Shown: one piece after another, positions 4,528 to 63,298 of the stretch
Numbering within the stretch: position 1 is the first letter of the stretch
Layout: each line of letters begins with the position of its first letter
Made by a program: the position numbers and the translations under genes
Virus record (IMG/VR): IMGVR_UViG_2737471993_000002
Strand: one strand, 5' to 3'
Source: a virus
Lineage: Duplodnaviria > Heunggongvirae > Uroviricota > Caudoviricetes
Length of the DNA: 64,000 nucleotides
The notes under the pieces: generated by a model
Seen by the model: the letters and a program-made list of their open reading frames with translations, nothing else
What the model was told of the DNA's origin: nothing
The model's database searches: none

Positions 4528-7500
4528 ATGTGGTACAGGGAAGGTACTATCACATTTACACAGGGCAGCAATACTCTGGTTGGGGCAGGGACAGCCTGGA
4601 ACGTAACAGCTAATGGTGTGTTGCCGGGGATGATCGTCATTGGCCCCGACAATAAGCTGTATGAGATCAAGCGCGTAACCAGTGATACGAACATTGTTCT
4701 CTCAGAACCTTATACCGGCGAAACTCAGTCTGAAGTTCCGTGCCGAATCATTACGACCTATGAAGGCGACTTAACACAGTTTAGCGCGCGCTTTACAGCA
4801 CTAATGTCGCGTATGTCGGCTGATTCCAAGTCCATGCGCAGTTGGTTGACTGCTCTGGATGAGGTGACAATCGAGCGTGAAGACGGTACAGAAGTGACCG
4901 TTAAGCCGCTAATGCAGATCGTCAACGAGCACAACGAAAACGTTGAGTGGTATAAAAATAACACTGACGCGATTGATGCTGCTGGCGACAAAGCTCGTGA
5001 GGCGGCGGCCAGTGCTGCCGCAGCAGCAGAAAGCGCCAATACCGCTGGAGAAAAAGCCTCTCAAGCGTCTCAAAGTGCATCCGCTGCAGAGTCCTCAAAA
5101 AGCGCGGCGGCCACCAGTGCCGGTGCCGCGAAAACGTCTGAAACGAATGCTGCAGCGTCACAAAAATCTGCAGCCACTTCTGCATCCACCGCGACCACGA
5201 AGGCGTCAGAAGCTGCCACCTCAGCCCGGGATGCGGCGGCCTCAAAAGAGGCAGCGAAATCATCAGAAACGAGCGCAGCCTCGAGCGCCAGTAATGCCGC
5301 TTCCTCGGCAACGGCGGCAGGAAATTCCGCGAAGGCGGCAAAAACGTCCGAGACGAACGCCAGGTCTTCTGAAACGGCAGCGGGACAGAGCGCCTCGGCT
5401 GCGGCAGGCTCAAAAACAGCGGCTGCGTCGTCTGCCAGTGCCGCGTCAACAAGTGCCGGGCAGGCCTCAGCCAGTGCCACCGCCGCCGGAAAATCGGCAG
5501 AAAGTGCCGCATCGTCTGCTTCAACAGCCACAACGAAGGCTGGCGAAGCCACTGAACAGGCCAGCGCAGCAGCGAGGTCTGCTTCCGCAGCGAAGACATC
5601 CGAAACGAACGCGAAAGCGTCGGAAACCCGTGCAGAATCCTCAAAAACGGCAGCCGCATCGTCCGCCAGTTCGGCAGCGTCATCGGCATCATCTGCGTCT
5701 GCTTCAAAAGATGAGGCGACCAGACAGGCGTCAGCAGCGAAGGGCAGCGCCACGACGGCATCCACGAAAGCAACAGAGGCGGCAGGCAGTGCGACGGCAG
5801 CATCTCAGAGCAAAACTGCTGCTGAATCCGCTGCGACCCGTGCGGAAGCTGCTGCTGATCGTGCTGAAGAGATTGCCGGTGCAGTTGCGATGGAAGACGC
5901 AAGCCTTACAACTAAAGGTGTTGTGAAACTTAGCAGTGCTGTCGACAGCACCAGTGAATCGCTGGCCGCAACGCCAAAAGCAGTTAAAGTAGTCAATGAC
6001 AATGCGAACAGCAGGGTGCCATCTAACCGAAAAATTAACGGGAAAGCACTGACTGCGGATATCACATTAACGCCGAAAGATATTGGTACTTTAAATTCAA
6101 TAACGATGTCTTTCTCTGGCGGGGCCGGGTGGTTCAAACTGGCTACTGTTACAATGCCACAAGCGAGTTCCATCGTTTACATCGCATTGATTGGTGGCGC
6201 TGGTTACAACGTCGGCTCCCCACATCAGGCAGGCATTTCAGAACTGGTTCTACGAGCAGGCAATGGAAACCCCAAAGGGATTACAGGTGCTTTGTGGAAG
6301 CGTACAGCTGTCGGATTAACGAATTTCGCCTGGATCAACACATCCGGCGATACATATGATATTTACGTTGAGATTGGCAATTATGCGACTCGTGTAAATA
6401 TCCATTGGGATTGTACTGCAAATGCGACAGTTTCTATTTATACATCGCCAACATATTCAGCGAGTAAGCCTTCCAGCGTTACCGATGGTGTTGTTTATAC
6501 GATGTATAGCACACATCAGAAACCGACGCCGTTAGATATTGGAGCACTGCCAACAACCGGAGGAACAGTTTCAGGTCAGTTGTCTGTTACTGGTGGGATC
6601 ACCGGAACATTAAATGGTAATGCAAGTACAGCAACGAAATTGCAGACGGCAAGATCTATCGGTGGAGTTGGTTTCGACGGTTCTGCAAATATCAACCTTC
6701 CAGGTGTAAATACTACGGGTAATCAGAACACCACTGGTAATGCTGCAACTGCTACAAAACTTCAGACGGCAAGAACTATCGGCGGCGTGAGCTTTGATGG
6801 TACTGCGAATATTAATTTGCCAGGTGTTAATACGGCTGGTAATCAGAATACAACGGGCAACGCGGCTACTGCTACGAAGTTGCAGACTGCGCGTACTATC
6901 AATGGGGTGTCGTTTGACGGCTCGGCAAATATTTCCTTGTCGCCAGCAAATATAGGTTGCCCGGCATCTCCTACTGGTTGGTTAACTACAGGAAGTAATG
7001 GCGGAGCAATAACAACAGCACAGTTAGTGACGTTATTGCAAAATAATGGAGCATTTAACACAAAGTCATGGATTGCTCGATGTGCGTGGGCCTATGCCAA
7101 TAGTGCAACCATACCAAATAGTGAAACTGGTTGTGGCGTTATTCCATTGGCAGGAGCTGTTATAGAGGTATTTAATAACGGTAGTAGCTCAAACAATTAT
7201 ACGATCCGTATAACAACGGCCACAACGACGAGTGTCTCTGGTGCTCTCACTAATGCGGAGTTTATCTATGTATTTAATGGCACATATTATTCTCCGGGAT
7301 GGCGAAGAGTATATAACACGAAAAACAAACCAACAGCCTCTGATGTCGGTGCATTACCTCTTACCGGTGGTACATTATCTGGAGGTTTGACATCTTCTGG
7401 CGAGATCATTTCAAAATATGCAAATGGTTTCCGCATTGCTTACGGTAGCTTTGGGTTCTTTATCCGTAATGATGGATCGAACACATATTTCATGCTAACA

Positions 7501-8556
7501 GCATCAGGAGACACATTAGGTTCATGGAACGGTTTGCGACCAATTACAATTAATAATACCAGCGGTGCTGTATCAATTGGTAATGGACTAAATGTGACTG
7601 GTGGCGTAAATGGTAGTTTGAACGGTAATGCTTCAACAGCTACGAAGTTGCAAACAGCGAGAAACATCAATGGTGTTAAGTTTGATGGCTCAGGCGATAT
7701 CAACATTAATACATTGGTATCTCGTGGCCGAGTTACGGCGTTAAGCGGCTCTACTCAAGGCACTGCTGGCATTCAAATGTACGAGGCGTACAACAATAGC
7801 TACCCGACCACGTATGGCAACGTATTGCACATGAAAGGTGCGAGTGCTGCTGGTGAGGGCGAGTTGCTTATTGGCTGGAGTGGTACGAGCGGTGCACATG
7901 CGCCAGTTTTCATTCGCTCACGAAGAGATACCACAGATGCGGCATGGTCAGCGTGGGCGCAGGTATATACTGCTAAGGATTCAATCCCTGGTGTGAATAC
8001 AACCGGTAATCAGAATACTACTGGTAATGCCGCAACAGCCACAAAATTGCAGACAGCAAGGAAAATTGCTGGTGTGGCGTTTGATGGCTCTGCCGATATT
8101 ACTTTGACTGCGGCTAACCTTAATGCCTATACGAAAACAGAGGTAACAAACCTTCTAAGTTCCTATGTGAAGAGCAGTGCTCTTCCAAGTATGACTGTGC
8201 GAACTTCCTCTGTTTCAGGTGGGGATATGGGCATGAGTTTGTCCACATTCATTAGCCACCTAAAATCAAATGGGGCGTTTAGCAAAAGTTATTGGATTGG
8301 CTTTGGCGATGCTATGGGATTCAATGCTGGCAGTATCAACAATATAACGGGATTTGGTGCTGTAGAATTAGCAGAATCTATAATCGAAGTTTTTAATCTA
8401 CCTAACGGTGATTATACAATTCGTTTAACAACGTCACATAAAGCTGACTACGGTGGAGTTACAAACGCAATCCTCGTTTATCACTACCGTAGTAATAGAA
8501 GTCCGTCAGGTCAATGGCTGAAATTTGCAGGTACTGTTGGGGCAACAAGTAACTGA
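4528..8556 (+). CDS. Side tail fibre protein (Stf-like) with Ala/Ser-rich region and C-terminal fibre repeats
   Basis: ATG at 4528 preceded by AAGGAG. Long Ala/Ser/Thr low-complexity segment with KTSETNA-type motifs typical of lambdoid side tail fibres; five copies of GNASTATKLQTAR.I.GV.FDG.ANI..PGVNTTGNQNTTGNAATATKLQTAR. Confidence 0.7.
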   Translation: MWYREGTITFTQGSNTLVGAGTAWNVTANGVLPGMIVIGPDNKLYEIKRVTSDTNIVLSEPYTGETQSEVPCRIITTYEGDLTQFSARFTALMSRMSADSKSMRSWLTALDEVTIEREDGTEVTVKPLMQIVNEHNENVEWYKNNTDAIDAAGDKAREAAASAAAAAESANTAGEKASQASQSASAAESSKSAAATSAGAAKTSETNAAASQKSAATSASTATTKASEAATSARDAAASKEAAKSSETSAASSASNAASSATAAGNSAKAAKTSETNARSSETAAGQSASAAAGSKTAAASSASAASTSAGQASASATAAGKSAESAASSASTATTKAGEATEQASAAARSASAAKTSETNAKASETRAESSKTAAASSASSAASSASSASASKDEATRQASAAKGSATTASTKATEAAGSATAASQSKTAAESAATRAEAAADRAEEIAGAVAMEDASLTTKGVVKLSSAVDSTSESLAATPKAVKVVNDNANSRVPSNRKINGKALTADITLTPKDIGTLNSITMSFSGGAGWFKLATVTMPQASSIVYIALIGGAGYNVGSPHQAGISELVLRAGNGNPKGITGALWKRTAVGLTNFAWINTSGDTYDIYVEIGNYATRVNIHWDCTANATVSIYTSPTYSASKPSSVTDGVVYTMYSTHQKPTPLDIGALPTTGGTVSGQLSVTGGITGTLNGNASTATKLQTARSIGGVGFDGSANINLPGVNTTGNQNTTGNAATATKLQTARTIGGVSFDGTANINLPGVNTAGNQNTTGNAATATKLQTARTINGVSFDGSANISLSPANIGCPASPTGWLTTGSNGGAITTAQLVTLLQNNGAFNTKSWIARCAWAYANSATIPNSETGCGVIPLAGAVIEVFNNGSSSNNYTIRITTATTTSVSGALTNAEFIYVFNGTYYSPGWRRVYNTKNKPTASDVGALPLTGGTLSGGLTSSGEIISKYANGFRIAYGSFGFFIRNDGSNTYFMLTASGDTLGSWNGLRPITINNTSGAVSIGNGLNVTGGVNGSLNGNASTATKLQTARNINGVKFDGSGDININTLVSRGRVTALSGSTQGTAGIQMYEAYNNSYPTTYGNVLHMKGASAAGEGELLIGWSGTSGAHAPVFIRSRRDTTDAAWSAWAQVYTAKDSIPGVNTTGNQNTTGNAATATKLQTARKIAGVAFDGSADITLTAANLNAYTKTEVTNLLSSYVKSSALPSMTVRTSSVSGGDMGMSLSTFISHLKSNGAFSKSYWIGFGDAMGFNAGSINNITGFGAVELAESIIEVFNLPNGDYTIRLTTSHKADYGGVTNAILVYHYRSNRSPSGQWLKFAGTVGATSN

Positions 8557-11538: not shown

Positions 11539-11563
11539 CAGGCGACTTTGGTCGCCTTTTTTG
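11539..11563 (+). terminator. Rho-independent terminator
   Basis: GGCGAC-TTTG-GTCGCC hairpin followed by TTTTTT immediately after stop at 11534. Confidence 0.7.
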
Positions 11564-12738: not shown

Positions 12739-12789
12739 TTATATTGGGCGTTTGTTACGCCCAATATATGAATTAAAGGATTGATACTA

Positions 12790-14484
12790 ATGGAATCGAT
12801 AGAATCATTTCTAAAAAATTTTCTAGTTTCAGATCATCGGGTTGCCGTCATAAAAGGAGATTGGGGCGTTGGTAAAACTCATTATTGGAATAGTTTTTAT
12901 ACTAAGCATTCTGAAGGATTAGATTTTAATGCATATTCGTATGTTTCTTTGTTTGGGGTTAACTCTATTGGTGATATTAAAAAAGCTCTTTATCATTGTG
13001 CCACACCAATTAATGAAAAGAAATATAAAGAACTAATTTTATCTGAAACGGATCGAACTATGATTCGTTATAGAAATGGGTTTTTGGGATGGTTGAAATA
13101 CAACTCCTTGTCAAAATTTTTAATACATTTCGGAAAGAACGATTTTTTTGGGTTCAAAACAGATAACCTGCTGTCATCTCTTGAGTATAAATTTGTTAAT
13201 AATTATTTGGTTTGTATTGATGATGTTGAAAGAAAAGGTAATTCGCTAGAAGTTAAAGAAATTATGGGGGTAATTGATGAATTGGCAAGAAGAAAAGGCT
13301 GCAAAGTTGTTCTAATTTTAAATGAAGATAATTTACATGATGAAACTGCAAAAAAACAGTTTTTAGAGTACAGAGAAAAAGTAATTGATGTCGAAATAAA
13401 ATATGATCCTACGCCTGAGAAGAACTTACGTAAAGTTTTTTATGAAACTGATTCTGATTTTCTTTTGTTAAAAGTCTTAGCAAATGACTTAGGCATTAAA
13501 AATATCCGTATATTAAATAAAATAAAAACATCTCTGGTTAATCTTAGGAATGAGCTAAGCTTGGCAGAGGATAAGGTTAGAGAAAGTTTTATCAATAGAT
13601 TGGTTCTGTTTTCAGTGGTTTACTATTCTGGTGTTCCAGGTGTTGATTATGCCTTGTTTAAAGAATCAATTAAAAACATACATGTATTTGATTACATGTT
13701 AGATGATAAAAAGGATGATTCTGTATATTCATTTATTAATAGTCTTGATATTATTTATGAACGAGCGGAAATTGCTTTCGATGATGACATAGATTTTTAT
13801 CTCAAGAATGGTTATCTTTCTACTGAAAGCAATATTCGAGGTATAATAGAAGAAAAAAATAAACAATATAAAGAACACAAGGCTTTATGTGAGGTTAACA
13901 ATGTTTGGGATATTTTTAGTGACTCATTCAAGGACAATGAATCTGAGTTTATTTCTAAGATAAAATGTGTAATTAACGACAATCTTTCACACATACCTGT
14001 TGCTCACTTCATAGGCTTGATTGATATCTTAAATAGATTGGAGATTGATTGTGATAGTTATATAGAGGCATATGCAGATGCCTTTGTTAGCCAAGATGAT
14101 GCTTATACTGCTTTTCGGAATTTGTATGTAGAGATATTTGGTAACGAAAAGTTAGGTCTGCTAATTCAAAAAAAATTGATGGATAAGAAGCCTGAAGAGA
14201 CTAATTTAGAGAATGTTTTATACAAAATAATTGAAGGCAAATTTAATCATAGTGACATAGCATATCTTAACAGTTTCTCTGAAGATGATTATTTAAAGTG
14301 GATATTATCCCGCAATCAGGATGCTTTGGATTTAGTGAGAAAGGGGTTGCTCAGATTCAAAAGTATGCAAGAACTAACAGAAGAACAGCAAAAAATCACG
14401 AATAAAGCAATAGGTGCATTAACGAAACTGGCCTCTAGATCAAGTCTTAACAAACTACGTGTGAGCAGATTGCTTAATAATTAA
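12790..14484 (+). CDS. KAP-family P-loop NTPase (accessory gene, candidate defence function)
   Basis: ATG at 12790 with AAAGGA 9 nt upstream (track start 12781 is TTG). Walker A GDWGVGKTHYW (GxWGxGKT hallmark of KAP NTPases) at aa ~24-34, Walker B-like LVCIDDVE. Very AT-rich relative to neighbours. Confidence 0.55.
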   Translation: MESIESFLKNFLVSDHRVAVIKGDWGVGKTHYWNSFYTKHSEGLDFNAYSYVSLFGVNSIGDIKKALYHCATPINEKKYKELILSETDRTMIRYRNGFLGWLKYNSLSKFLIHFGKNDFFGFKTDNLLSSLEYKFVNNYLVCIDDVERKGNSLEVKEIMGVIDELARRKGCKVVLILNEDNLHDETAKKQFLEYREKVIDVEIKYDPTPEKNLRKVFYETDSDFLLLKVLANDLGIKNIRILNKIKTSLVNLRNELSLAEDKVRESFINRLVLFSVVYYSGVPGVDYALFKESIKNIHVFDYMLDDKKDDSVYSFINSLDIIYERAEIAFDDDIDFYLKNGYLSTESNIRGIIEEKNKQYKEHKALCEVNNVWDIFSDSFKDNESEFISKIKCVINDNLSHIPVAHFIGLIDILNRLEIDCDSYIEAYADAFVSQDDAYTAFRNLYVEIFGNEKLGLLIQKKLMDKKPEETNLENVLYKIIEGKFNHSDIAYLNSFSEDDYLKWILSRNQDALDLVRKGLLRFKSMQELTEEQQKITNKAIGALTKLASRSSLNKLRVSRLLNN

Positions 14485-14494
14485 GTATTCATGA

Positions 14495-14545
14495 CCTGTT
14501 TCTGTATATAAATAATAAGTAACTTATTAAATATACGGAAGCAGG
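14495..14545. repeat. Copy A of duplicated long hairpin module (CCTGYTTCTGTATAT...ATATACGGAAGCAGG)
   Basis: 15-bp inverted arms around an AT-rich loop, directly after stop of the KAP NTPase gene; near-identical element at 62321-62385; downstream ~40 nt later a shared CCA(C/-)NAGAAC..CTCCCTTCC block. Confidence 0.6.
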
Positions 14546-14662
14546 TCTTTCAAAAGATACCCACCAGAACAACTCCCTTCCGTTTCCACTTCCAAAAACT
14601 GCCACCAATCGCTATCATCAGCTCATTGTGATAAGTAAGTAACTACCTACCAGGTGAGCCAC

Positions 14663-23439: not shown

Positions 23440-24187
23440 CTTTTATGTATAAGATGACTTTGTTTTCGTTGAGACGCGACTGTTTGAACTTAAATACAAG
23501 TGCAAACGAAGAAGTCTATCTGGCAGTAGCCTAATAAGCCAAACACCAGCGAGGTCAGTTTCCAGCCTCGTTACCGAAATGGGACACACTGAGCGAGTGT
23601 GATTGCAGAACGCAGGAGGGAACATGAGTGTTCCCTCCGATGAAGTAACAGAATGGGCGGTCGGTATATTTTCAACTCCATATGACTCCCGGATTCTTAG
23701 CCTCTGACCGCCCATCCTGTTACGTCATTTTGTTCAATTATGTCGTTTATACTGGGTTAAAAAGCGGCGACGTAGCCCGGCTGGTATGGTTAGCCAGCAC
23801 ACAACGTTGAGGCCATTACATTTTTATCAATTCTAAGGTTCTATTCACAGAGATACCGGCGAGCGTTGATATGTAACATGTTGGGCAAACATTCAATCGG
23901 AGTAGTGGCCTCAACGTTGTGAAGACAGGATTGTTGTGTAGGTTTAACCACTGTTGCCATTGGTGCCTGTTTTCACAACAAATGATTCCATACATCACAT
24001 TGTATAAATTACAAAGTAGGTGCTGTCCTCAGAAACATCATCTACTTAAAGATTTTGCCTTCTACTATTGAGCGAAGTCGAAAGCGTCTGGCACTAACGA
24101 AAAGTGCAAGTAGCGGTGCGTTTCCTGGCAGAAACTAAACCGTCGCGATTGGCACTGTTGAGTAATAAATACTGGCAGTGCCGAATT

Positions 24188-24262
24188 GATGGTGTAGCTC
24201 AGCGGTAGAGCAGTTGGCTGTTAACCAACTGGTCGGTGGTTCGAATCCACCCACCATCGCCA
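24188..24262 (+). tRNA. tRNA-Asn (anticodon GTT)
   Basis: Acceptor stem GATGGTG/CACCATC, anticodon loop CTGTTAA, T-arm GGTGG-TTCGAAT-CCACC, discriminator G and encoded CCA. Confidence 0.8.
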
Positions 24263-24267
24263 ATTTA

Positions 24268-24354
24268 GGGGAGTTAGTCCGTAGAGGTAGCGGTGTAGAC
24301 TGTAAATCTACTGTCATTGCGACTCGGGTGGTTCGACTCCATCACTCCCCACCA
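24268..24354 (+). tRNA. tRNA-Tyr (anticodon GTA), long variable arm
   Basis: Acceptor GGGGAGT/ACTCCCC, anticodon loop CTGTAAA, long variable arm, T-loop GGTTCGACTCC, encoded CCA. Confidence 0.75.
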
Positions 24355-24358
24355 AATT

Positions 24359-24434
24359 GCCGGTTTAGCTCAGTTGGTAGAGCGCCTGCCTTGTAAGCAG
24401 GATGTCAGCGGTTCGAGTCCGTTAACCGGCACCA
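24359..24434 (+). tRNA. tRNA-Thr (anticodon TGT)
   Basis: Acceptor GCCGGTT/AACCGGC, D-arm GCTCAGTTGGTAGAGC, anticodon loop CTTGTAA, T-loop GGTTCGAGTCC, encoded CCA. Confidence 0.8.
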
Positions 24435-24658
24435 ATACAACGATAAGATCATTACGGTTAATCGTCGTTCATGTGCACAATGACTGGTCGAAAGGTAGTG
24501 ATCTTACCGTTGTGGTGGATTCGCAGACTGATGCGATAGCTTTCTTGGATGTTAGGGAAATGCGGCCGCAAATCTTCCCTTTCGCGAGCGGTGATCGTCC
24601 GTAGTCCTAATTGGCTGCACCGTATGCCGGAGATTCAGTACCGGCCACCACAATGGCC

Positions 24659-24747: not shown

Positions 24748-24825
24748 CACAGCGTTGAGCGGTTTGGCCTTTTAATCAACCAGATTAAGACTCCGCTAAC
24801 ATAAACCAGACCGCTCAACGCTGTG
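24748..24825. repeat. Long inverted repeat immediately 3' of tRNA-Ser
   Basis: 20-bp arms CACAGCGTTGAGCGGTTTGG / CCAGACCGCTCAACGCTGTG around a ~38-nt loop; arm sequence is related to the inverted repeat at 23798-23921. Confidence 0.6.
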
Positions 24826-36090: not shown

Positions 36091-36363
36091 AAAGAATTAT
36101 GGCGCTTGTTGAGGAAGTCACTCCTCTTACGCACTTTGTTTTGCCATGCCGGCAGTTAGCTTCTGCCTTTGACTATTCATGCGGCAACCCCGCATTTCGC
36201 CACAATGGGCAATTCACTTTTATGGAATAAACTGGCCGTTGTGTCGATTTAATTAGCATGGCCTTACCATGCTAATTTATTCAACTTGTACAATCCTACA
36301 AATCTATCCACTCAGGCTTACACCGTCTTCGTTATTGTAGAAATGAGGATCATCAGCGTTGAA

Positions 36364-36579
36364 TCAGCTTAGAGCAACGACATTTGCTGCTGCTGGGCCT
36401 TTAGCCCCATTCTCGATAGAGAATTCGACCTGCTGGCCTTCTTCCAAAGTGCGGAAATTATTACTCTGAATTGCCGAAAAATGTACAAAAACATCTTTAC
36501 TGCCATCAGCAGGAGAAATAAAGCCAAAGCCTTTATCAGAGTTAAACCATTTTACTAAACCAGTCATTTTATTAGACAT
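36364..36579 (-). CDS. Cold-shock protein (CspA family)
   Basis: Start at internal Met ([23 protein letters not shown]..); RNP1/RNP2 motifs KGFGFI and VFVHF; 71 aa; ~270-bp upstream noncoding leader. Confidence 0.85.
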
Positions 36580-36908
36580 AGATATTACCTTCTTAATTTT
36601 GTGAGCCACATAGTGCGGCGAGAATTTGATCTGTATAGATTGGGACTTACTTAGGCACTTAAGGAGGAGACTCACGAAGAAGGGAAATCAGAAGATAACA
36701 CTGAACTGAGACTGCTTTACTAAAACTGCTTACATAAGGTCTGTCTTGCAAACCAACGATGCTATTAACGCATACCCCTTCTTTTCATGCAACCTTTATT
36801 TTTCAAAGATAACTAATTTTTGTCACCATTGGTTTAGTAAACGTTAACGAACCAGACGATGCCAGACACCTTTACAGAGAACAGATGCCCGCCAATTGGC
36901 GGGCATCA

Positions 36909-44674: not shown

Positions 44675-44721
44675 ATGCAAACTGACTGCGGCACGTTCCG
44701 CAGTCATATTTCATAGTCGTC

Positions 44722-45254
44722 ACCGCTGACAGCATACACAATCAACTACCGCTGATAGCATATCGAGAGTCTATCTCACCGCTCACAGCATACTTTACTC
44801 GATTTTTTACCGCTGACAGCATACTTAAGACATTGCATGAATAATGTGTACCGGTATGGGTATAACCAGAACAAAATTACCGCTGGCAGCATACGAAGGT
44901 CTGACATATACCATTAATTACCGCTGATAGCATATCCAAACAAAAATTCCTCAATAAAACACCGCTGACAGCATACGTTCTATCAGGGAGCAGCAGGCAA
45001 TAAATGCCTTTCACTACAAGCAATCAGCGCAATAGCAATAGAATGTTAGTGAGCGCAAACCTATATGGAATGCACTCTTCGAGGTTAGTAACCACTGGGG
45101 AGGTATGACAGAGCATTGAGTGGTGATAGATGATTTACCGCCCACAGCATACGTTCATCTCACTATACCGCTGGTAGCATATATTTAACCGTTTACAGCA
45201 TACTTTTCAGAAAAATAGCCGCTGATAGCATACATTTCACCGCTGACAGCATAT
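44722..45254. repeat. Iteron array (12 copies of ~16-bp ACCGCTGACAGCATAC) downstream of repA
   Basis: Copies at ~44722, 44748, 44778, 44809, 44879, 44920, 44961, then 45137, 45167, 45188, 45218, 45239; minor variants (GATAGCATAT, CACAGCATAC). Two clusters separated by ~160 bp. Confidence 0.85.
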
Positions 45255-46348
45255 CAAAGCAGTTTGAGACTATTGGAAAGGATCTCAATCATCTTGATAT
45301 TTTCAGGCGTCAAATTCTGCGAAAGTTCGGTTATCTTGTTGATAATGTTCTGTTTGGCATCAATTTCCCCAGCTTTCTCATCTAGTTTTTTGGGTTCGAT
45401 GTCTTCAGGTTTTGGCGGTGCGACTTTGAGTTTTGGATTGCGGCTGTGAATCTGGATATAGATCGACCGCCCTCGCTTAATCTCGCTGTATTCGAGATAA
45501 CCCAAATCTTGGAGAGCTTTTAAGCCGTTGCGTATAGTCTGATTCTGCGAGCTGACATTCCTGCTACTCAAATTGAGTCGCGCACGCAATCGAGCAAGCG
45601 ATACCGGCGCAGGCTTGGTTGGAAGACTTTCGATGAAGGTGTACAGAGCCTGTGCTGTTTCTTTGCGTGGTAGCTTATTGATAACCTTTAACTGCAAAAG
45701 AACCTTATGGTCAAAGCGATATAGTTCGGCCAGCTTCGGTTCTGCATAGAACACCACCGTATCTTTCTGCTCGTTGTAGTCCACGCTATTGATGAGGTGC
45801 ACCATCAGAAGCGAGATCTTGTTAGAGCCGTCGACGTTCTTTTCTTCATACGTTCTCTGGAAAGACAGAGTTGTACGCATGATCTTCAAAAGACTGTTTG
45901 TAAGCCGGTCGCGGAGTGTTTTGCGGATCTGTGACGATGGATAGCCACAAAACTTCGCAAATTTCGTGATGCTTAACTCGACACGACCGTTAGGTTCGCC
46001 GTATTCTGCCAGCGAACGCACAACGCCCACCCACGTTTTGAAATCATGATCCATGTCGAGACGAGGACCGGTTATCTTGATATCGGAATAGCCTTCAGAA
46101 CGGGCTACTTCGAGCTGAACAAGCTCCTTTGAAGCATCGATCTCATTTGGCTTGTTACGCTTGCTGTATTTTGTCCCCTTGAGCGTGGGCACGAACAATC
46201 CCAGCCGCATCAACGCAATTGGTTGGACTGTATTGTTGCTATTAGGGACAAGTTCCCCTGTGTACAATTCAAGGGAACCTTCTTCAAAGTTGTCGAGATT
46301 ATCTTCTACTTCTTTGTTATTTTTACCTTTTTTATTTTTTGTGGACAT
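45254..46348 (-). CDS. repA: Plasmid replication initiator RepA (RepFIB / P1 RepA-like)
   Basis: Start at internal ATG 46348 with AAGGTG SD (the longer track ORF would run through the upstream iterons). Motifs NTVQPIALMRLGLFVPTLK, ITGPRLDMDHDFKTWVG, QALYTFIESLP, PVSLARLRARLNL recalled as RepFIB-type signatures. Confidence 0.85.
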   Translation of the reverse strand: MSTKNKKGKNNKEVEDNLDNFEEGSLELYTGELVPNSNNTVQPIALMRLGLFVPTLKGTKYSKRNKPNEIDASKELVQLEVARSEGYSDIKITGPRLDMDHDFKTWVGVVRSLAEYGEPNGRVELSITKFAKFCGYPSSQIRKTLRDRLTNSLLKIMRTTLSFQRTYEEKNVDGSNKISLLMVHLINSVDYNEQKDTVVFYAEPKLAELYRFDHKVLLQLKVINKLPRKETAQALYTFIESLPTKPAPVSLARLRARLNLSSRNVSSQNQTIRNGLKALQDLGYLEYSEIKRGRSIYIQIHSRNPKLKVAPPKPEDIEPKKLDEKAGEIDAKQNIINKITELSQNLTPENIKMIEILSNSLKLL

Positions 46349-46368
46349 GTGGACACCTTTGTCATTCA

Positions 46369-46470
46369 ACCGCTGACAGCATACTTGATTTGCCGCTGAC
46401 AGAATACCAAAAACAGTTGGCAGCATACGGTGAACCGCTGACAGACTATCAATTACCGCTGACAGCATAC
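46369..46470. repeat. Iteron array upstream of repA (origin-side, ~5 copies)
   Basis: ACCGCTGACAGCATAC-type repeats at ~46369, 46392, 46417 (partial), 46434, 46455. Confidence 0.8.
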
Positions 46471-59994: not shown

Positions 59995-60552
59995 ATGACA
60001 ACGATTGTTGCAGGCATCGATATCGAGTCTACGGGACTGGATTTCCTTGCTGGTCATAAAATTATTGAAATCGCAATTACCCGCTATGAACTGGAGACAC
60101 AGAGACATATTGATAGTCTGGAGATGCGTTTTAACCCTCGCAGAAACATAGATCCGAAAGCTCAAGCCGTTCATGGCATTTCATTGGAACAGCTCGCAGC
60201 TGAACCTTTGTTGTCAAATCATGCCAGCGAAATTGGCGCTTATATGGGGGCATGTAGTGTGTGGGTTGCTCATAACGGCGAAGCATTTGATATACCATTT
60301 ATTCGACACGAGTTTTCAGGGTATGGAGTAAGACTGCCAGAAGTTCCTGTTATAGATACTATGTTATCGGGATTGTGGGCCACAGAAGACGGTAAACGTC
60401 CCCGCCTTGAAGAGTTGGCCTTCTCTCTTGGCTTTATATACGATCATGCCAAAGCACATAGTGCCTTATATGACACAAACTTAATGATGCAATGCTTCTT
60501 TAAGGCACGTAATAAGTACGGATTTTTTAAATTACCCTCTGAAATTGTGTAA
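59995..60552 (+). CDS. DnaQ-like 3'-5' exonuclease (DEDDh, epsilon-like)
   Basis: Exo I GIDIESTG, Exo II HNGEAFDIPF, Exo III HSALYDTNL; 185 aa. Confidence 0.75.
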   Translation: MTTIVAGIDIESTGLDFLAGHKIIEIAITRYELETQRHIDSLEMRFNPRRNIDPKAQAVHGISLEQLAAEPLLSNHASEIGAYMGACSVWVAHNGEAFDIPFIRHEFSGYGVRLPEVPVIDTMLSGLWATEDGKRPRLEELAFSLGFIYDHAKAHSALYDTNLMMQCFFKARNKYGFFKLPSEIV

Positions 60553-60556
60553 AACA

Positions 60557-60595
60557 AAAGCCTACTTTAAAAAGTTTAAAGTAGGCTTTCTTTTA
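60557..60595. terminator. Bidirectional hairpin terminator
   Basis: AGCCTACTTTA-n7-TAAAGTAGGCT with A-run before and T-run after. Confidence 0.65.
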
Positions 60596-61560: not shown

Positions 61561-61645
61561 GTGCTGGGTAAGCCAATCACATACCCAGCACCACAAAAAC
61601 GCGCCAGAGAGCTTCTCGTTTGCATTTCTGGCGCGTTTTATTTGA
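61561..61645. terminator. Two consecutive hairpins after the 60711 gene
   Basis: GTGCTGGGTA...TACCCAGCAC (61561-61591) and AAAACGCGCCAGA-n19-TCTGGCGCGTTTT followed by T-rich tract (61598-61645). Confidence 0.55.
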
Positions 61646-61703: not shown

Positions 61704-62297
61704 ATGATTGCAGCCGAAAAAATCAAACAGCGAAAGCGCGACAACTCTCTTCGTGACCTCTGGAGAACACCTGACTGGCTGTTTTCTGCCATTCAACGTT
61801 ATCTTGGAGTGACATTTGATGTTGACGTTGCCTGCAACAAGGACAATGCAAAGCTGCCTAATTTCATAGGCGTTGAGCGTGATGCTTTGAAATCTGAATG
61901 GGGACAGCCAGGTACAATTGCCTTCCTCAATCCACCCTACTCCAAAATCTCCCCCTGGATTGATGCGGCTATACGTGAGCAGGCTCGCGGAGTTACAACA
62001 GTGATGCTAATTCCTCAATCCCTAGATACAAAGTGGTATGAGCGTGCAACAGAGTGTGCGAATGAGACGATTATTCTGTCTGGTGGCCGCGTAGCGTTTG
62101 TCGAGCCTGACGTCAATCTGGGTCAGGTAGAAGTAAACATCAACCCAGGTGGCAGTATGCTCGTTGTTTTTCGAGGATTCTGTCAGGACGCTGGGCACTC
62201 TATAAGCAAGATCCCTTTGGACGTCATGAAAAGTCTGGGAGGGTATGATCCTGCGAATGTGATCAGGAAAAAAAGACCATCAAAGAAGGCTGCTTAG
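61704..62297 (+). CDS. DNA N6-adenine methyltransferase (phage Dam-like)
   Basis: RTPDWLFSAIQRYLGVTFDVDVA and catalytic FLNPPYS motif; 197 aa. Confidence 0.75.
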   Translation: MIAAEKIKQRKRDNSLRDLWRTPDWLFSAIQRYLGVTFDVDVACNKDNAKLPNFIGVERDALKSEWGQPGTIAFLNPPYSKISPWIDAAIREQARGVTTVMLIPQSLDTKWYERATECANETIILSGGRVAFVEPDVNLGQVEVNINPGGSMLVVFRGFCQDAGHSISKIPLDVMKSLGGYDPANVIRKKRPSKKAA

Positions 62298-62320
62298 TTT
62301 GTTCTGGCGTCTGTAATTAG

Positions 62321-62385
62321 CCTGCTTCTGTATATATAAATAACTACATATTAATTATTAATATACGGAAGCAGGCTGTTTTGTA
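62321..62385. repeat. Copy B of duplicated long hairpin module
   Basis: CCTGCTTCTGTATAT...ATATACGGAAGCAGG directly after methyltransferase stop; 3' arm identical to copy A, 5' arm differs by one base that converts a G-U wobble into a Watson-Crick pair. Confidence 0.6.
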
Positions 62386-62482
62386 TCAGAGACTCCAGAC
62401 CTGAACATCACTACAGAATCCACTAGAACCCCTTCCCAGACGCTTTAAAATCGATTTTATGAACCACTTTAAGGAAACCAAC

Positions 62483-62713
62483 ATGTCATACCCGACTAAT
62501 GTCGTTGCGCTCGTAGAGAGCGATTTTCTGGCCCAGGCTCGTGAAATGATGAAAGATCGTGAGCAGGCTTTCAACTTGTACGAATGGGCAATTAAGTGCT
62601 TGCATCTTGGCGAGCATCGCGAACTTGTTGAACAGCTTTTAGGTGAGTTGATCAATGAGGTGTTTGCCTTGAATGTTCAACTACATGGTAGAGAAAATAA
62701 TCAATCACAATGA
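62483..62713 (+). CDS. Hypothetical small protein
   Basis: ATG at 62483 with AGGAA SD; 76 aa. Confidence 0.45.
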   Translation: MSYPTNVVALVESDFLAQAREMMKDREQAFNLYEWAIKCLHLGEHRELVEQLLGELINEVFALNVQLHGRENNQSQ

Positions 62714-63298
62714 TAGATAAGTACAAACTATTCATAAGGTGAATTGTAAGTGCTAAGATCTGATAGTTTCCAGTCGTAGACTGGAGACTCGACCTGATGG
62801 GTGGGGGTAAGCGTCACTGGCGTCAGGTTTAAAAAAGCTCACTACCAGCGTAGAACTGGTGCCGTTTAGGTGTCGGGGAAGGGGGAACCAAAGTGAGCGG
62901 AGACAAGGGTCACTTTATGATTGTCGAGTCTGGGGTGTTTCGAGAGGTTGAATCCAGTACTCCCCTTCATAAAGTGTGGGAAGATCTCGGTTCTGGGGTG
63001 CTGTCATCCATAACTTCCCAAGTCTAAGCTGGCAGTAGACTTAGACCATAACTTTTCAGGTTATGAAACGACCAGGTTGGTGAGGGATTTTTATACTCAC
63101 CTCCCTGGGAGAGTATTACCTGAAAAGACAACCTCTCACTTCGTTCGAGGTGAACTTCACTCACTTCGTTCGTTCAGTTCAGGTTTATAAAAACCTGTTC
63201 TGGGAAGTAATTTGTTTATTTTAATAATTATTAACACGCACGCGTGTGCGCACGCGCGAGGAAAAAAAATCGGCGCGGCGCTTGATTCAGGAGTTTAT

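Follow-up and report, generated by a model that had tools for sequence, protein, structure and literature searches.

A hairpin repeated at the module junctions of SSU5/pHCM2-type phage-plasmids is a probable transcription terminator and recombination patch

Introduction

When a similar hairpin precedes two unrelated genes of one virus, it has to be asked whether only the hairpin is shared or a larger regulatory unit, and what the shared part might do. This question was raised by a 64,000-nt stretch of Caudoviricetes DNA (IMG/VR record IMGVR_UViG_2737471993_000002; hereafter, the window). The initial annotation, made from the sequence alone, had noticed a duplicated hairpin module near 14495 (hereafter, copy A) and at 62321-62430 (copy B), and suggested that both copies represent a shared regulatory unit, that is, a terminator plus a promoter or RNA leader. 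The replicons to which the window is related, phage-plasmids of the SSU5/pHCM2/pMT1 type, are common in clinical Enterobacteriaceae, and their transcriptional organisation has been little studied.

Results and discussion

The window matches SSU5/pHCM2-type phage-plasmids

Both window loci matched Escherichia phage CMS-2020a (99%), phage Cyrano (pLF82; 98% at the copy B locus and 96.6% at the copy A locus) and Salmonella phage SSU5 (77-82%), and the copy B locus also matched Klebsiella phage-plasmids (~76%). Because of these matches, the window is identified by similarity as part of an SSU5/pHCM2-type phage-plasmid of E. coli. In annotated relatives, copy B has a Dam-family methyltransferase gene on one side and a small hypothetical gene on the other, and copy A separates the partition/cargo region from a hypothetical gene, after which come the genes for DnaB helicase and primase. 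The Pfam and PHROGs results agree with this context, and the initial placement of copy B between a Dam-like methyltransferase gene and a 76-aa ORF was correct (Table 1). Directly upstream of copy A, the window encodes a 567-aa KAP-NTPase-like cargo ORF.

Only the hairpin is duplicated

The duplication noticed near 14495 and 62321 is real. The two hairpins share an exact 15-mer (ATATACGGAAGCAGG, at 14531 and 62361), and their local alignment scored 57, compared with 14.4 +/- 2.8 for shuffled sequences, none of 2,000 shuffles reaching 57. The inner hairpin is composed of 17 bp, a 3-nt bulge and 5-7 bp more, and the stem base is G+C-rich in both copies, (A)GCCTGC/GCAGGC(T). As + strand RNA, copy A folds at -28.7 kcal/mol (z = -7.4) and copy B at -30.4 kcal/mol (z = -6.0). 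The window was scanned, with filters off, by means of a covariance model derived from 36 diverse members of the hairpin family; the scan recovered copies A and B only (E about 1e-13), the next best match had an E value of 0.16, and no more diverged copy of the hairpin was detected in the window.

The repeat is shorter than first described. The sequence 3' of copy B (62378-62430, compared over 100 nt) was not significantly similar to that 3' of copy A (score 18 vs 15.3 +/- 2.4, p = 0.16), and the upstream flanks of the two copies were not significantly alike either (local alignment vs shuffles, p = 0.56). The interval 62321-62430 thus over-extends the repeat, because only the hairpin is duplicated; the unit ends at 62377, or at 62386 if the T-run is counted. 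The distance from the preceding stop codon to the hairpin is about 8-10 nt at copy A and about 21-23 nt at copy B.

The hairpin had no match in Rfam at the gathering threshold, and the sub-threshold matches, which were to miRNA-precursor models only, were judged to be chance. A generic terminator scan of the window called neither hairpin, because its loop limit is 3-8 nt.

Table 1 Features of the copy A and copy B loci in the window.
Feature	Coordinates	Strand	Description
Copy A (site A) inner hairpin	14493..14547	+	17-bp lower stem with two G.U pairs; AT-rich apex
Interrupted T-run after copy A	14548..14556	+	Stem ends in TC, followed by TTTCAAAAG; TCTTTC breaks the U-tract
Leader after copy A	14557..14650	+	C-rich, G-poor; 33 C and 10 G in 103 nt (14548-14650, T-run included)
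Gene upstream of copy B	61704..62297	+	Dam-family N6-adenine methyltransferase (Pfam Dam PF05869, E = 2.5e-38)
Left outer arm of copy B	62301..62313	+	Degenerate, GTTCTGGCGTCTG; in relatives GGTCTGGGAG
Copy B (site B) inner hairpin	62319..62377	+	17-bp lower stem with one G.U pair; AT-rich, partly paired apex
Copy B 5' arm	62319-62335		AGCCTGCTTCTGTATAT
Copy B apex	62336-62360		AT-rich
Copy B 3' arm	62361-62377		ATATACGGAAGCAGGCT
T-run after copy B	62378..62386	+	GTTTTGTAT, directly 3' of the stem; putative U-tract, function presumed
Right outer arm of copy B	62387..62406	+	Degenerate, CAGAGACTCCAGACCTGAAC, beyond the T-run; in relatives CTCCCAGACC
C-rich distal motif	62420..62443	+	CCACTAGAACCCCTTCCCAGACGC; resembles 14561-14582 of copy A; the CCAGACGC part is conserved at site B
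-10-like hexamer	62446..62451	+	TAAAAT, conserved, 32 nt before the ATG; TAGAAT in SSU5 and Klebsiella relatives
76-aa ORF downstream of copy B	62483..62713	+	Conserved phage protein of unknown function (PHROG 5343)

Three copies occupy fixed module junctions across six genera

Beyond what the initial annotation had described, there is a third copy outside the window, and the hairpin is a lineage-wide mark of module junctions. The complete relative CP054387 carries exactly three copies. Site A follows parAB and the cargo genes, site B follows the Dam methyltransferase gene, and site C, outside the window, precedes terS-terL-portal and has an 88-aa ORF, for a DNA-binding protein, on its other side. 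The arcs between the three sites are about 31, 48 and 30 kb long; the ~31-kb arc contains the morphogenesis, cargo and partition genes, and the ~48-kb arc contains the replication genes, tRNAs and repA iterons, up to the methyltransferase gene. For an unbiased test of presence, loci were gathered via their flanking genes and not via the hairpin. The hairpin was present in 78 of the 80 site A loci (the other two are contig ends), in 70 of 80 at site B, and in all usable loci at site C. The three syntenic positions are kept across E. coli, Salmonella, Klebsiella, Enterobacter, Yersinia and Kluyvera, with a hairpin of about 55-60 nt. The hairpin can thereby serve as an annotation landmark for three module junctions of these replicons.

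A pattern scan of IMG/VR detected the hairpin in at least 120 stretches, and a BLAST search of PLSDB matched 714 plasmids, nearly all of them ~100-113 kb and non-mobilizable, from Klebsiella, Escherichia, Enterobacter, Salmonella (including pHCM2) and Citrobacter. No feature was annotated over the hairpin itself in the 12 PLSDB records listed, and literature searches on SSU5, pHCM2 and pMT1 returned nothing relevant on this hairpin or on pHCM2 transcriptomes. The hairpin is apparently a lineage-wide element that has so far been neither annotated nor described.

Among 185,579 species-representative genomes, only eight matches were obtained. Seven were in assemblies of Yersinia pestis, Kluyvera and Buttiauxella, on contigs that range from 10 to 110 kb and include three of 108-109 kb, and the eighth was on a 29.6-kb contig of a Bacillota MAG. 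As none of the eight lay on a chromosome-sized contig, the hairpin is not a chromosomal interspersed repeat of the MITE/REP kind; the window, too, has two copies only, both in syntenic positions. The hairpin resembles REP/BIME, ERIC and MITEs in being a repeated imperfect palindrome in transcribed intergenic DNA, but differs from them in its location off chromosomes, its three syntenic copies and the lack of any sign of transposition.

Copy A borders a cargo hot-spot and the copies evolve in concert

In alignments with Cyrano, SSU5 and others, the window becomes homologous at 14487-14505, where copy A has its 5' base. In the site A set, at least 20 unrelated left flanks are opposed to one conserved right flank, and they meet at the hairpin base or the left outer arm. 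In cargo-free genomes, copy A starts ~35 nt past the parB stop codon. These junctions indicate that copy A is the fixed right edge of a cargo hot-spot, and it would give a precise right boundary for a region that exchanges defence, toxin and resistance genes.

The copies within a genome can be 100% identical (A = C in two genomes, A = B in one), and one clade has a distinctive apex that is common to all three copies. Hybrid stems combine the alleles CTTCCG/CGGAAG and CGTCTG/CAGACG and look like crossovers inside the hairpin. The comparison indicates that the three copies evolve in concert. Because they are nearly identical, the copies may act as homology patches, through which they would homogenise one another and copy A would provide the exact swap point for unrelated cargo genes.

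A similar arrangement is known from the PeSL (promoter-early stem-loop) cassettes of T4-type phages, in which a conserved stem-loop/terminator lies at the borders of variable genes (PMC2839356, PMC4122927). In both cases a stem-loop is repeated in one phage genome and forms an exchange point between otherwise unrelated sequences. PeSLs, however, include an early promoter that is conserved, and hyperplastic regions contain many copies of them, whereas the phage-plasmid hairpin has three copies at fixed module junctions and no common promoter.

The hairpin might also have no regulatory role of its own, and be a single-stranded DNA hairpin or cruciform for replication priming, or a self-propagating palindrome that marks recombination junctions and persists via template switching and gene conversion. 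The concerted evolution of the copies, the hybrid stems and the cargo junction exactly at the hairpin base all fit such an element, the palindrome extends almost to its centre, and helicase and primase genes adjoin copy A. We nevertheless consider this explanation very unlikely, given that the three syntenic positions are all straight after stop codons at module junctions and conserved across the six genera, that the hairpin has not spread to other sites or chromosomes, and that the T-run, the terminator replacement and the RNA-seq data described below point to a function in transcription. An integron attC or telomere-resolution site was likewise rejected, as no integrase or protelomerase context was found near the copies, and three such sites on one circle are expected to cause deletions or inversions.

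Position, T-run and transcription support termination

The copies of the family start 10-35 nt past a stop codon and are oriented with the genes. In the 9 nt 3' of the stem, the sense strand has a mean of 5.5 T at site A and 5.1 T at site B (4.0 and 3.0, respectively, on the opposite strand), and the T-run is absent from site C (mean of 2.9 T in 9 nt). The tails after the CAGG stem core in relatives are typically TCTTTTAAAA, TCTTTTTCTA, CTGTTTTGTA and CTTTTTAAGA, and those at site A are mostly TCTTTTAAAA or TCTTTTTCTA. When distinct arm combinations are read on the sense strand, they contain 28 G.U pairs vs 9 A.C pairs.

Some relatives have replaced the hairpin at site B. In the clade L206-212 plus L215, whose methyltransferase is ~70% identical, the family hairpin is absent and a canonical terminator, AGAGATTCAGGCAC-loop-GTGCCTTAATCTCT followed by TTTTT, is found at this site. 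In L213 and L214 this position is taken by a long AT-rich hairpin whose sequence differs (CCTTGCTCCCATA...TATGGGAGCAAGG), and this amounts to a compensatory change.

Published RNA-seq data from a Cyrano lysogen cover the orthologue of copy A. The genes CYRAN_28-30 (parA, parB-like and a cargo gene) have log2(FPKM+5) values of 8.6-10.4 (PMC9928086, table S1), and CYRAN_31, which is located 193 nt past them, across the copy A orthologue, has values of 2.3-2.9 in LB/culture medium and <=4.2 inside macrophages (~0 FPKM; PMC9928086). Transcription at the gene level in this relative thus falls from >1000 FPKM to ~0, i.e., >100-fold, across the copy A orthologue (PMC9928086). The drop at site C in the same lysogen is only 3-5 fold, and both genes flanking copy B are silent (PMC9928086).

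With its 17-bp GC-based stem and the U-run that follows at sites A and B, the hairpin is therefore most likely a factor-independent terminator/insulator. On balance, we think it probable that the hairpin copies are a conserved terminator/insulator at the module junctions of SSU5/pHCM2/pMT1-type phage-plasmids and, in addition, a homology patch for recombination. The hairpin would separate two modules, being placed after the stop codon with which the last gene of the first module ends and ahead of the regulatory leader of the second, and the + strand RNA would form the 17-bp stem, with a GC-rich base and an AT-rich upper stem, directly followed by the U-run at sites A and B. RNA 3' ends would be expected to form at the T-run. 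At site A, the hairpin would block the lysogeny-expressed parA/parB/cargo transcript from entering the replication genes, and this would explain how lysogeny-expressed partition/cargo genes are kept separate from replication genes. We infer that copy B behaves like copy A, and it would then end the exonuclease-to-methyltransferase transcript ahead of the 76-aa ORF.

The hairpin combines known kinds of element and involves no new mechanism. It shares with intrinsic terminators the GC-rich base, the direct U-run on the coding strand, the start shortly past a stop codon and, at the copy A orthologue, the loss of downstream RNA in vivo. It differs from them in being far longer (17 bp plus the AT-rich upper stem, for a total of 55-59 nt) and in having a sequence that is conserved across genera and present in three paralogous copies; moreover, some copies (at site C and in a few clades) are without a U-run, and many lie inside a more extensive inverted repeat.

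The leaders downstream of the copies are site-specific

The leaders of sites A, B and C are each well conserved and mutually different. The conserved blocks at site A are CCCTTCCGTTTCCACTTCC, a weak TTCCAA-17 nt-TATCAT and a palindrome, ATAAGTAAGTAACTACCTAC, at 14631-14650, which adjoins the ribosome-binding site directly upstream. Those at site B are CCAGACGC and the -10-like hexamer TA(A/G)AAT, and the site C leader has two AAACAAGTTG repeats and a small terminator-like hairpin just before terS. The sole likeness downstream of the two window copies is a short C-rich motif, CCACYAGAAC..CCCTTCC (CCACTAGAAC..CCCTTCC after copy B and CCACCAGAAC..CCCTTCC after copy A).

A promoter scan found no + strand sigma-70-like site between either window hairpin and the next gene, and it also missed the TAAAAT hexamer of site B. 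To judge from its -10-like letters, TA(A/G)AAT is possibly a promoter element specific to this site. A genome-wide promoter/operator motif based on CCAGAC was tried and rejected: CYCCCAGAC, with <=1 mismatch, had 19 matches vs 13 expected, and the intergenic enrichment was modest.

As the leaders differ and neither window leader has a + strand promoter site, the shared 5' leader and the shared promoter that had been proposed for the two copies are not supported; the gene after copy A is, in addition, silent in the Cyrano lysogen. What stands of the proposed regulatory unit is the terminator, for which the stem, the T-run, the clade replacement and the Cyrano RNA-seq data argue.

The leader of site A may contribute to termination in its own way. 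Rho prefers C-rich, G-poor RNA. Across relatives, C makes up 37% and G 7% of the 50 nt 3' of copy A, so termination at this site may be strengthened by Rho, and the untranslated leader could add Rho-dependent termination to that of the hairpin.

Outer arms and a possible role in RNA processing

A larger imperfect palindrome encloses the hairpin in most relatives; it consists of GGTCTGGGAG, ~10 nt, the hairpin, 10-26 nt and CTCCCAGACC, and the outer arms are paired in most minimum-free-energy folds. The flanks of sites B and C are complementary across relatives, with a mean z of -2.5 and with 43-70% of the elements below z = -2. In the window, the pairing of the copy B flanks is weak (z = -1.57), and the copy A flanks do not pair; copy A is without a left outer arm because the 567-aa cargo ORF stops 8 nt upstream.

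Site C, L201-205 and L213/214 retain the hairpin although they have no T-run, and the hairpin is therefore conserved for a reason beyond classical termination. Such a reason could be RNA processing or stability, instead of or besides termination. The 17 bp and the 5-7 bp beyond the bulge could form a ~24-bp stack that is an RNase III substrate of the T7 type, and pairing of the outer arms would give a ~100-nt duplex, as in the lambda sib/tI retroregulator. As the T-run precedes the right outer arm, this long duplex would require a read-through transcript. In lambda sib, as apparently in most relatives, a terminator hairpin is located within a larger inverted repeat whose distal arm is beyond the U-run, and the intercistronic RNase III sites of T7 are similar long hairpins repeated between genes. 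Sib retroregulation is mentioned in PMC5300877.

The persistence of the hairpin without a T-run, its long inner stem and the flank complementarity at sites B and C favor processing, but the outer stem, weak or absent in the two window copies, sets them apart from the lambda and T7 sites, the outer arms show little clean covariation, and RNase III cleavage is putative here. Processing alone would also leave the >100-fold fall of downstream RNA unexplained, unless the downstream fragment is degraded. We regard such a role as unlikely.

Termination and processing could also be combined in a two-state junction element, to which we assign a low probability: termination in lysogeny and a read-through duplex after induction at all three junctions, plus a patch for module exchange. 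During lysogeny, the inner hairpin and the U-run would terminate transcription, so that genes for plasmid maintenance and cargo would be insulated from the lytic modules. Upon induction, transcription would read through, possibly with the help of a phage factor specific for the apex or for the invariant 3' arm, and the outer arms GTCTGGGAG/CTCCCAGAC would close the ~100-nt duplex, which would be processed as in lambda sib/RNase III. If this were true, one cassette would couple the lysis-lysogeny state to mRNA fate at three junctions, and recognition of the cassette by a phage factor or RNase III would give an entry point to the switch between plasmid and phage life.

Conservation of sequence and a possible DNA-level site

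The sequence of the stem is conserved beyond the needs of a terminator, above all in the near-invariant 3' arm TATACGGAAGCAGG, and the palindrome extends almost to its own centre; both features also fit a DNA-level site. Covariation within the family was not significant (95.2% of cells paired vs 94.5% in shuffles, with 43 of 500 shuffles as good), and the two sides of the most variable stem pair vary independently, which therefore leaves room for a palindrome that acts as DNA.

Such a site would be double-stranded and bound by a phage-plasmid protein, with or without the GTCTGGGAG/CTCCCAGAC arms. One candidate role is that of a dispersed centromere-like site to which the 119-aa RHH-type ParB-like protein would bind, and another is that of an operator; the fall of transcription at copy A would then reflect a protein roadblock or silencing. 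P1 parS and the N15 centromere sites are palindromic partition sites of phage-plasmids; N15 has four dispersed palindromic centromere sites, and the omega protein of pSM19035 binds three dispersed sites. The hairpin family is similar to N15/P1 parS in that several palindromes are scattered over the phage-plasmid, three per replicon, with one just downstream of the partition operon (copy A, ~35 nt past the parB stop codon in genomes without cargo). What is conserved is sequence and not pairing alone, and half-sites of a dispersed palindrome, ATARGTA-N6-TACYTAT, make up the apex in copies A and C. The ParB-like protein is as conserved as the hairpin, being 98% identical between the window and SSU5, and a comparison with SSU5 cannot separate the two for this reason. 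A classical repeat-array centromere upstream of parA was looked for and not found, which also favors a site of this kind.

The variable spacing of the arms, with element lengths of 51-57 nt and indels in the apex, however, is better suited to a hairpin than to a dimer site of rigid geometry, the T-run is strand-specific at sites A and B, and the excess of G.U over A.C pairs on the sense strand points to RNA. One clade carries a canonical RNA terminator instead, and a better candidate for a ParB operator exists upstream of parA, the palindrome AAACAAGTTGTTT, which is itself dispersed (5 matches vs 0.35 expected). Protein binding to the hairpin is putative, and a DNA-level site appears improbable to us as its main function, compared with the terminator/insulator.

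Dispersed palindromes other than the hairpin also occur, namely ATARGTA-N6-TACYTAT and AAACAANTTGTTT.

Dispersed palindromes

The 20-bp palindrome ATARGTA-N6-TACYTAT has 20 matches in the window with up to two mismatches, versus 0.53 expected. The majority of the clearest matches are intergenic, just 5′ of plus-strand gene starts. One site immediately precedes the ribosome-binding site of the gene following hairpin A, and one lies ~10 nt ahead of the start codon of the Dam-family methyltransferase gene upstream of hairpin B (A and B being near-identical stem-loops at module junctions). Half-sites of the palindrome (ATAAGTA/ACTTAT) make up the apex of hairpin copy A and of the third copy, which is located at site C, outside the window, before terS-terL-portal in the complete relative CP054387. 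The palindrome appears to serve a global regulator, either as a multi-copy operator or as a phage-specific promoter element. Another palindrome that is dispersed, AAACAANTTGTTT, was matched five times in the window (0.35 expected), once 5′ of parA, once 5′ of dnaB and at three other positions, and the site C leader ahead of terS holds two copies related to it. The RHH ParB-like protein may use AAACAANTTGTTT as its operator or as a centromere-like site.

Terminator-like hairpins

Three places in the window hold short, ordinary terminator-like hairpins bordered on both sides by A and T runs. Conventional terminators are therefore in use elsewhere on the phage-plasmid, and the long conserved three-copy hairpin thus stands out. 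The site C leader (CP054387; loci L297-L371) has a small conserved terminator-like hairpin, GAGCGC-N6-GCGCTC, 12 nt 5′ of the terS ribosome-binding site and followed by TGTGTGTTTT. A terminator placed immediately ahead of the late operon points to antitermination as the control on late-gene expression.

A gene-poor, probably lysogeny-expressed stretch

The 585 nt between the 76-aa ORF downstream of hairpin B and the RNase H gene (62714-63298) are gene-poor. The sole ORF annotated there in the related phage Cyrano, CYRAN_81 (44 aa), had no match when searched against PHROG. As its expression in the lysogen was 12-fold over the prophage background, the product of this stretch is probably a non-coding RNA or micro-protein expressed in lysogeny. 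Its motifs and structural elements are listed in the table.

Putative replication origin, cargo and RNA genes

Iteron-like repeats of ACCGCTGACAGCATAC (at least 20 copies) form two clusters. The region is interpreted as the origin of plasmid replication, and the gene for the initiator presumably lies between the clusters. Other repeats, with a 120-nt period, are contained in what is probably a tail-fibre gene. A 567-aa ORF matching KAP-family P-loop NTPases forms an insertion that separates parB from hairpin A. This ORF is cargo present in some relatives only (with 100% coverage in CP054387 alone) and may be a defence-type gene of the cargo hot-spot. Rfam matches in the window included a full-length cspA thermoregulator 5′ UTR and a cluster of three tRNA genes flanked by long hairpins.

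Coordinates of sequence features in the window
Feature	Position	Strand	Support
ATARGTA-N6-TACYTAT 20-bp sites	4465, 8677, 14631, 19898, 23420, 26342, 38457, 43930, 47437, 52121, 56834, 61673, 63889		
AAACAANTTGTTT palindrome sites	11663, 15415, 28890, 43126, 54564		
Short terminator-like hairpins	60552-60594, 61596-61639, 11540-11562		
CYRAN_81	62893-63027		
KTTCTGGGR motifs (three)	62926, 62990, 63197		
Very stable hairpin	63052-63127		z = -4.9
G+C-rich alternating purine-pyrimidine run	63237-63257		
ACCGCTGACAGCATAC repeats	44700-46470 (clusters ~44.7-45.3 kb and 46.4-46.5 kb)		
120-nt-period repeats	6580-8117		
KAP-family ORF	12781-14484		
cspA thermoregulator 5′ UTR	36339-36757	-	Rfam, 185.7 bits
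tRNA genes	24188-24431	+	Rfam
Long hairpins flanking tRNA cluster	23640-23728, 24432-24518, 24748-24825
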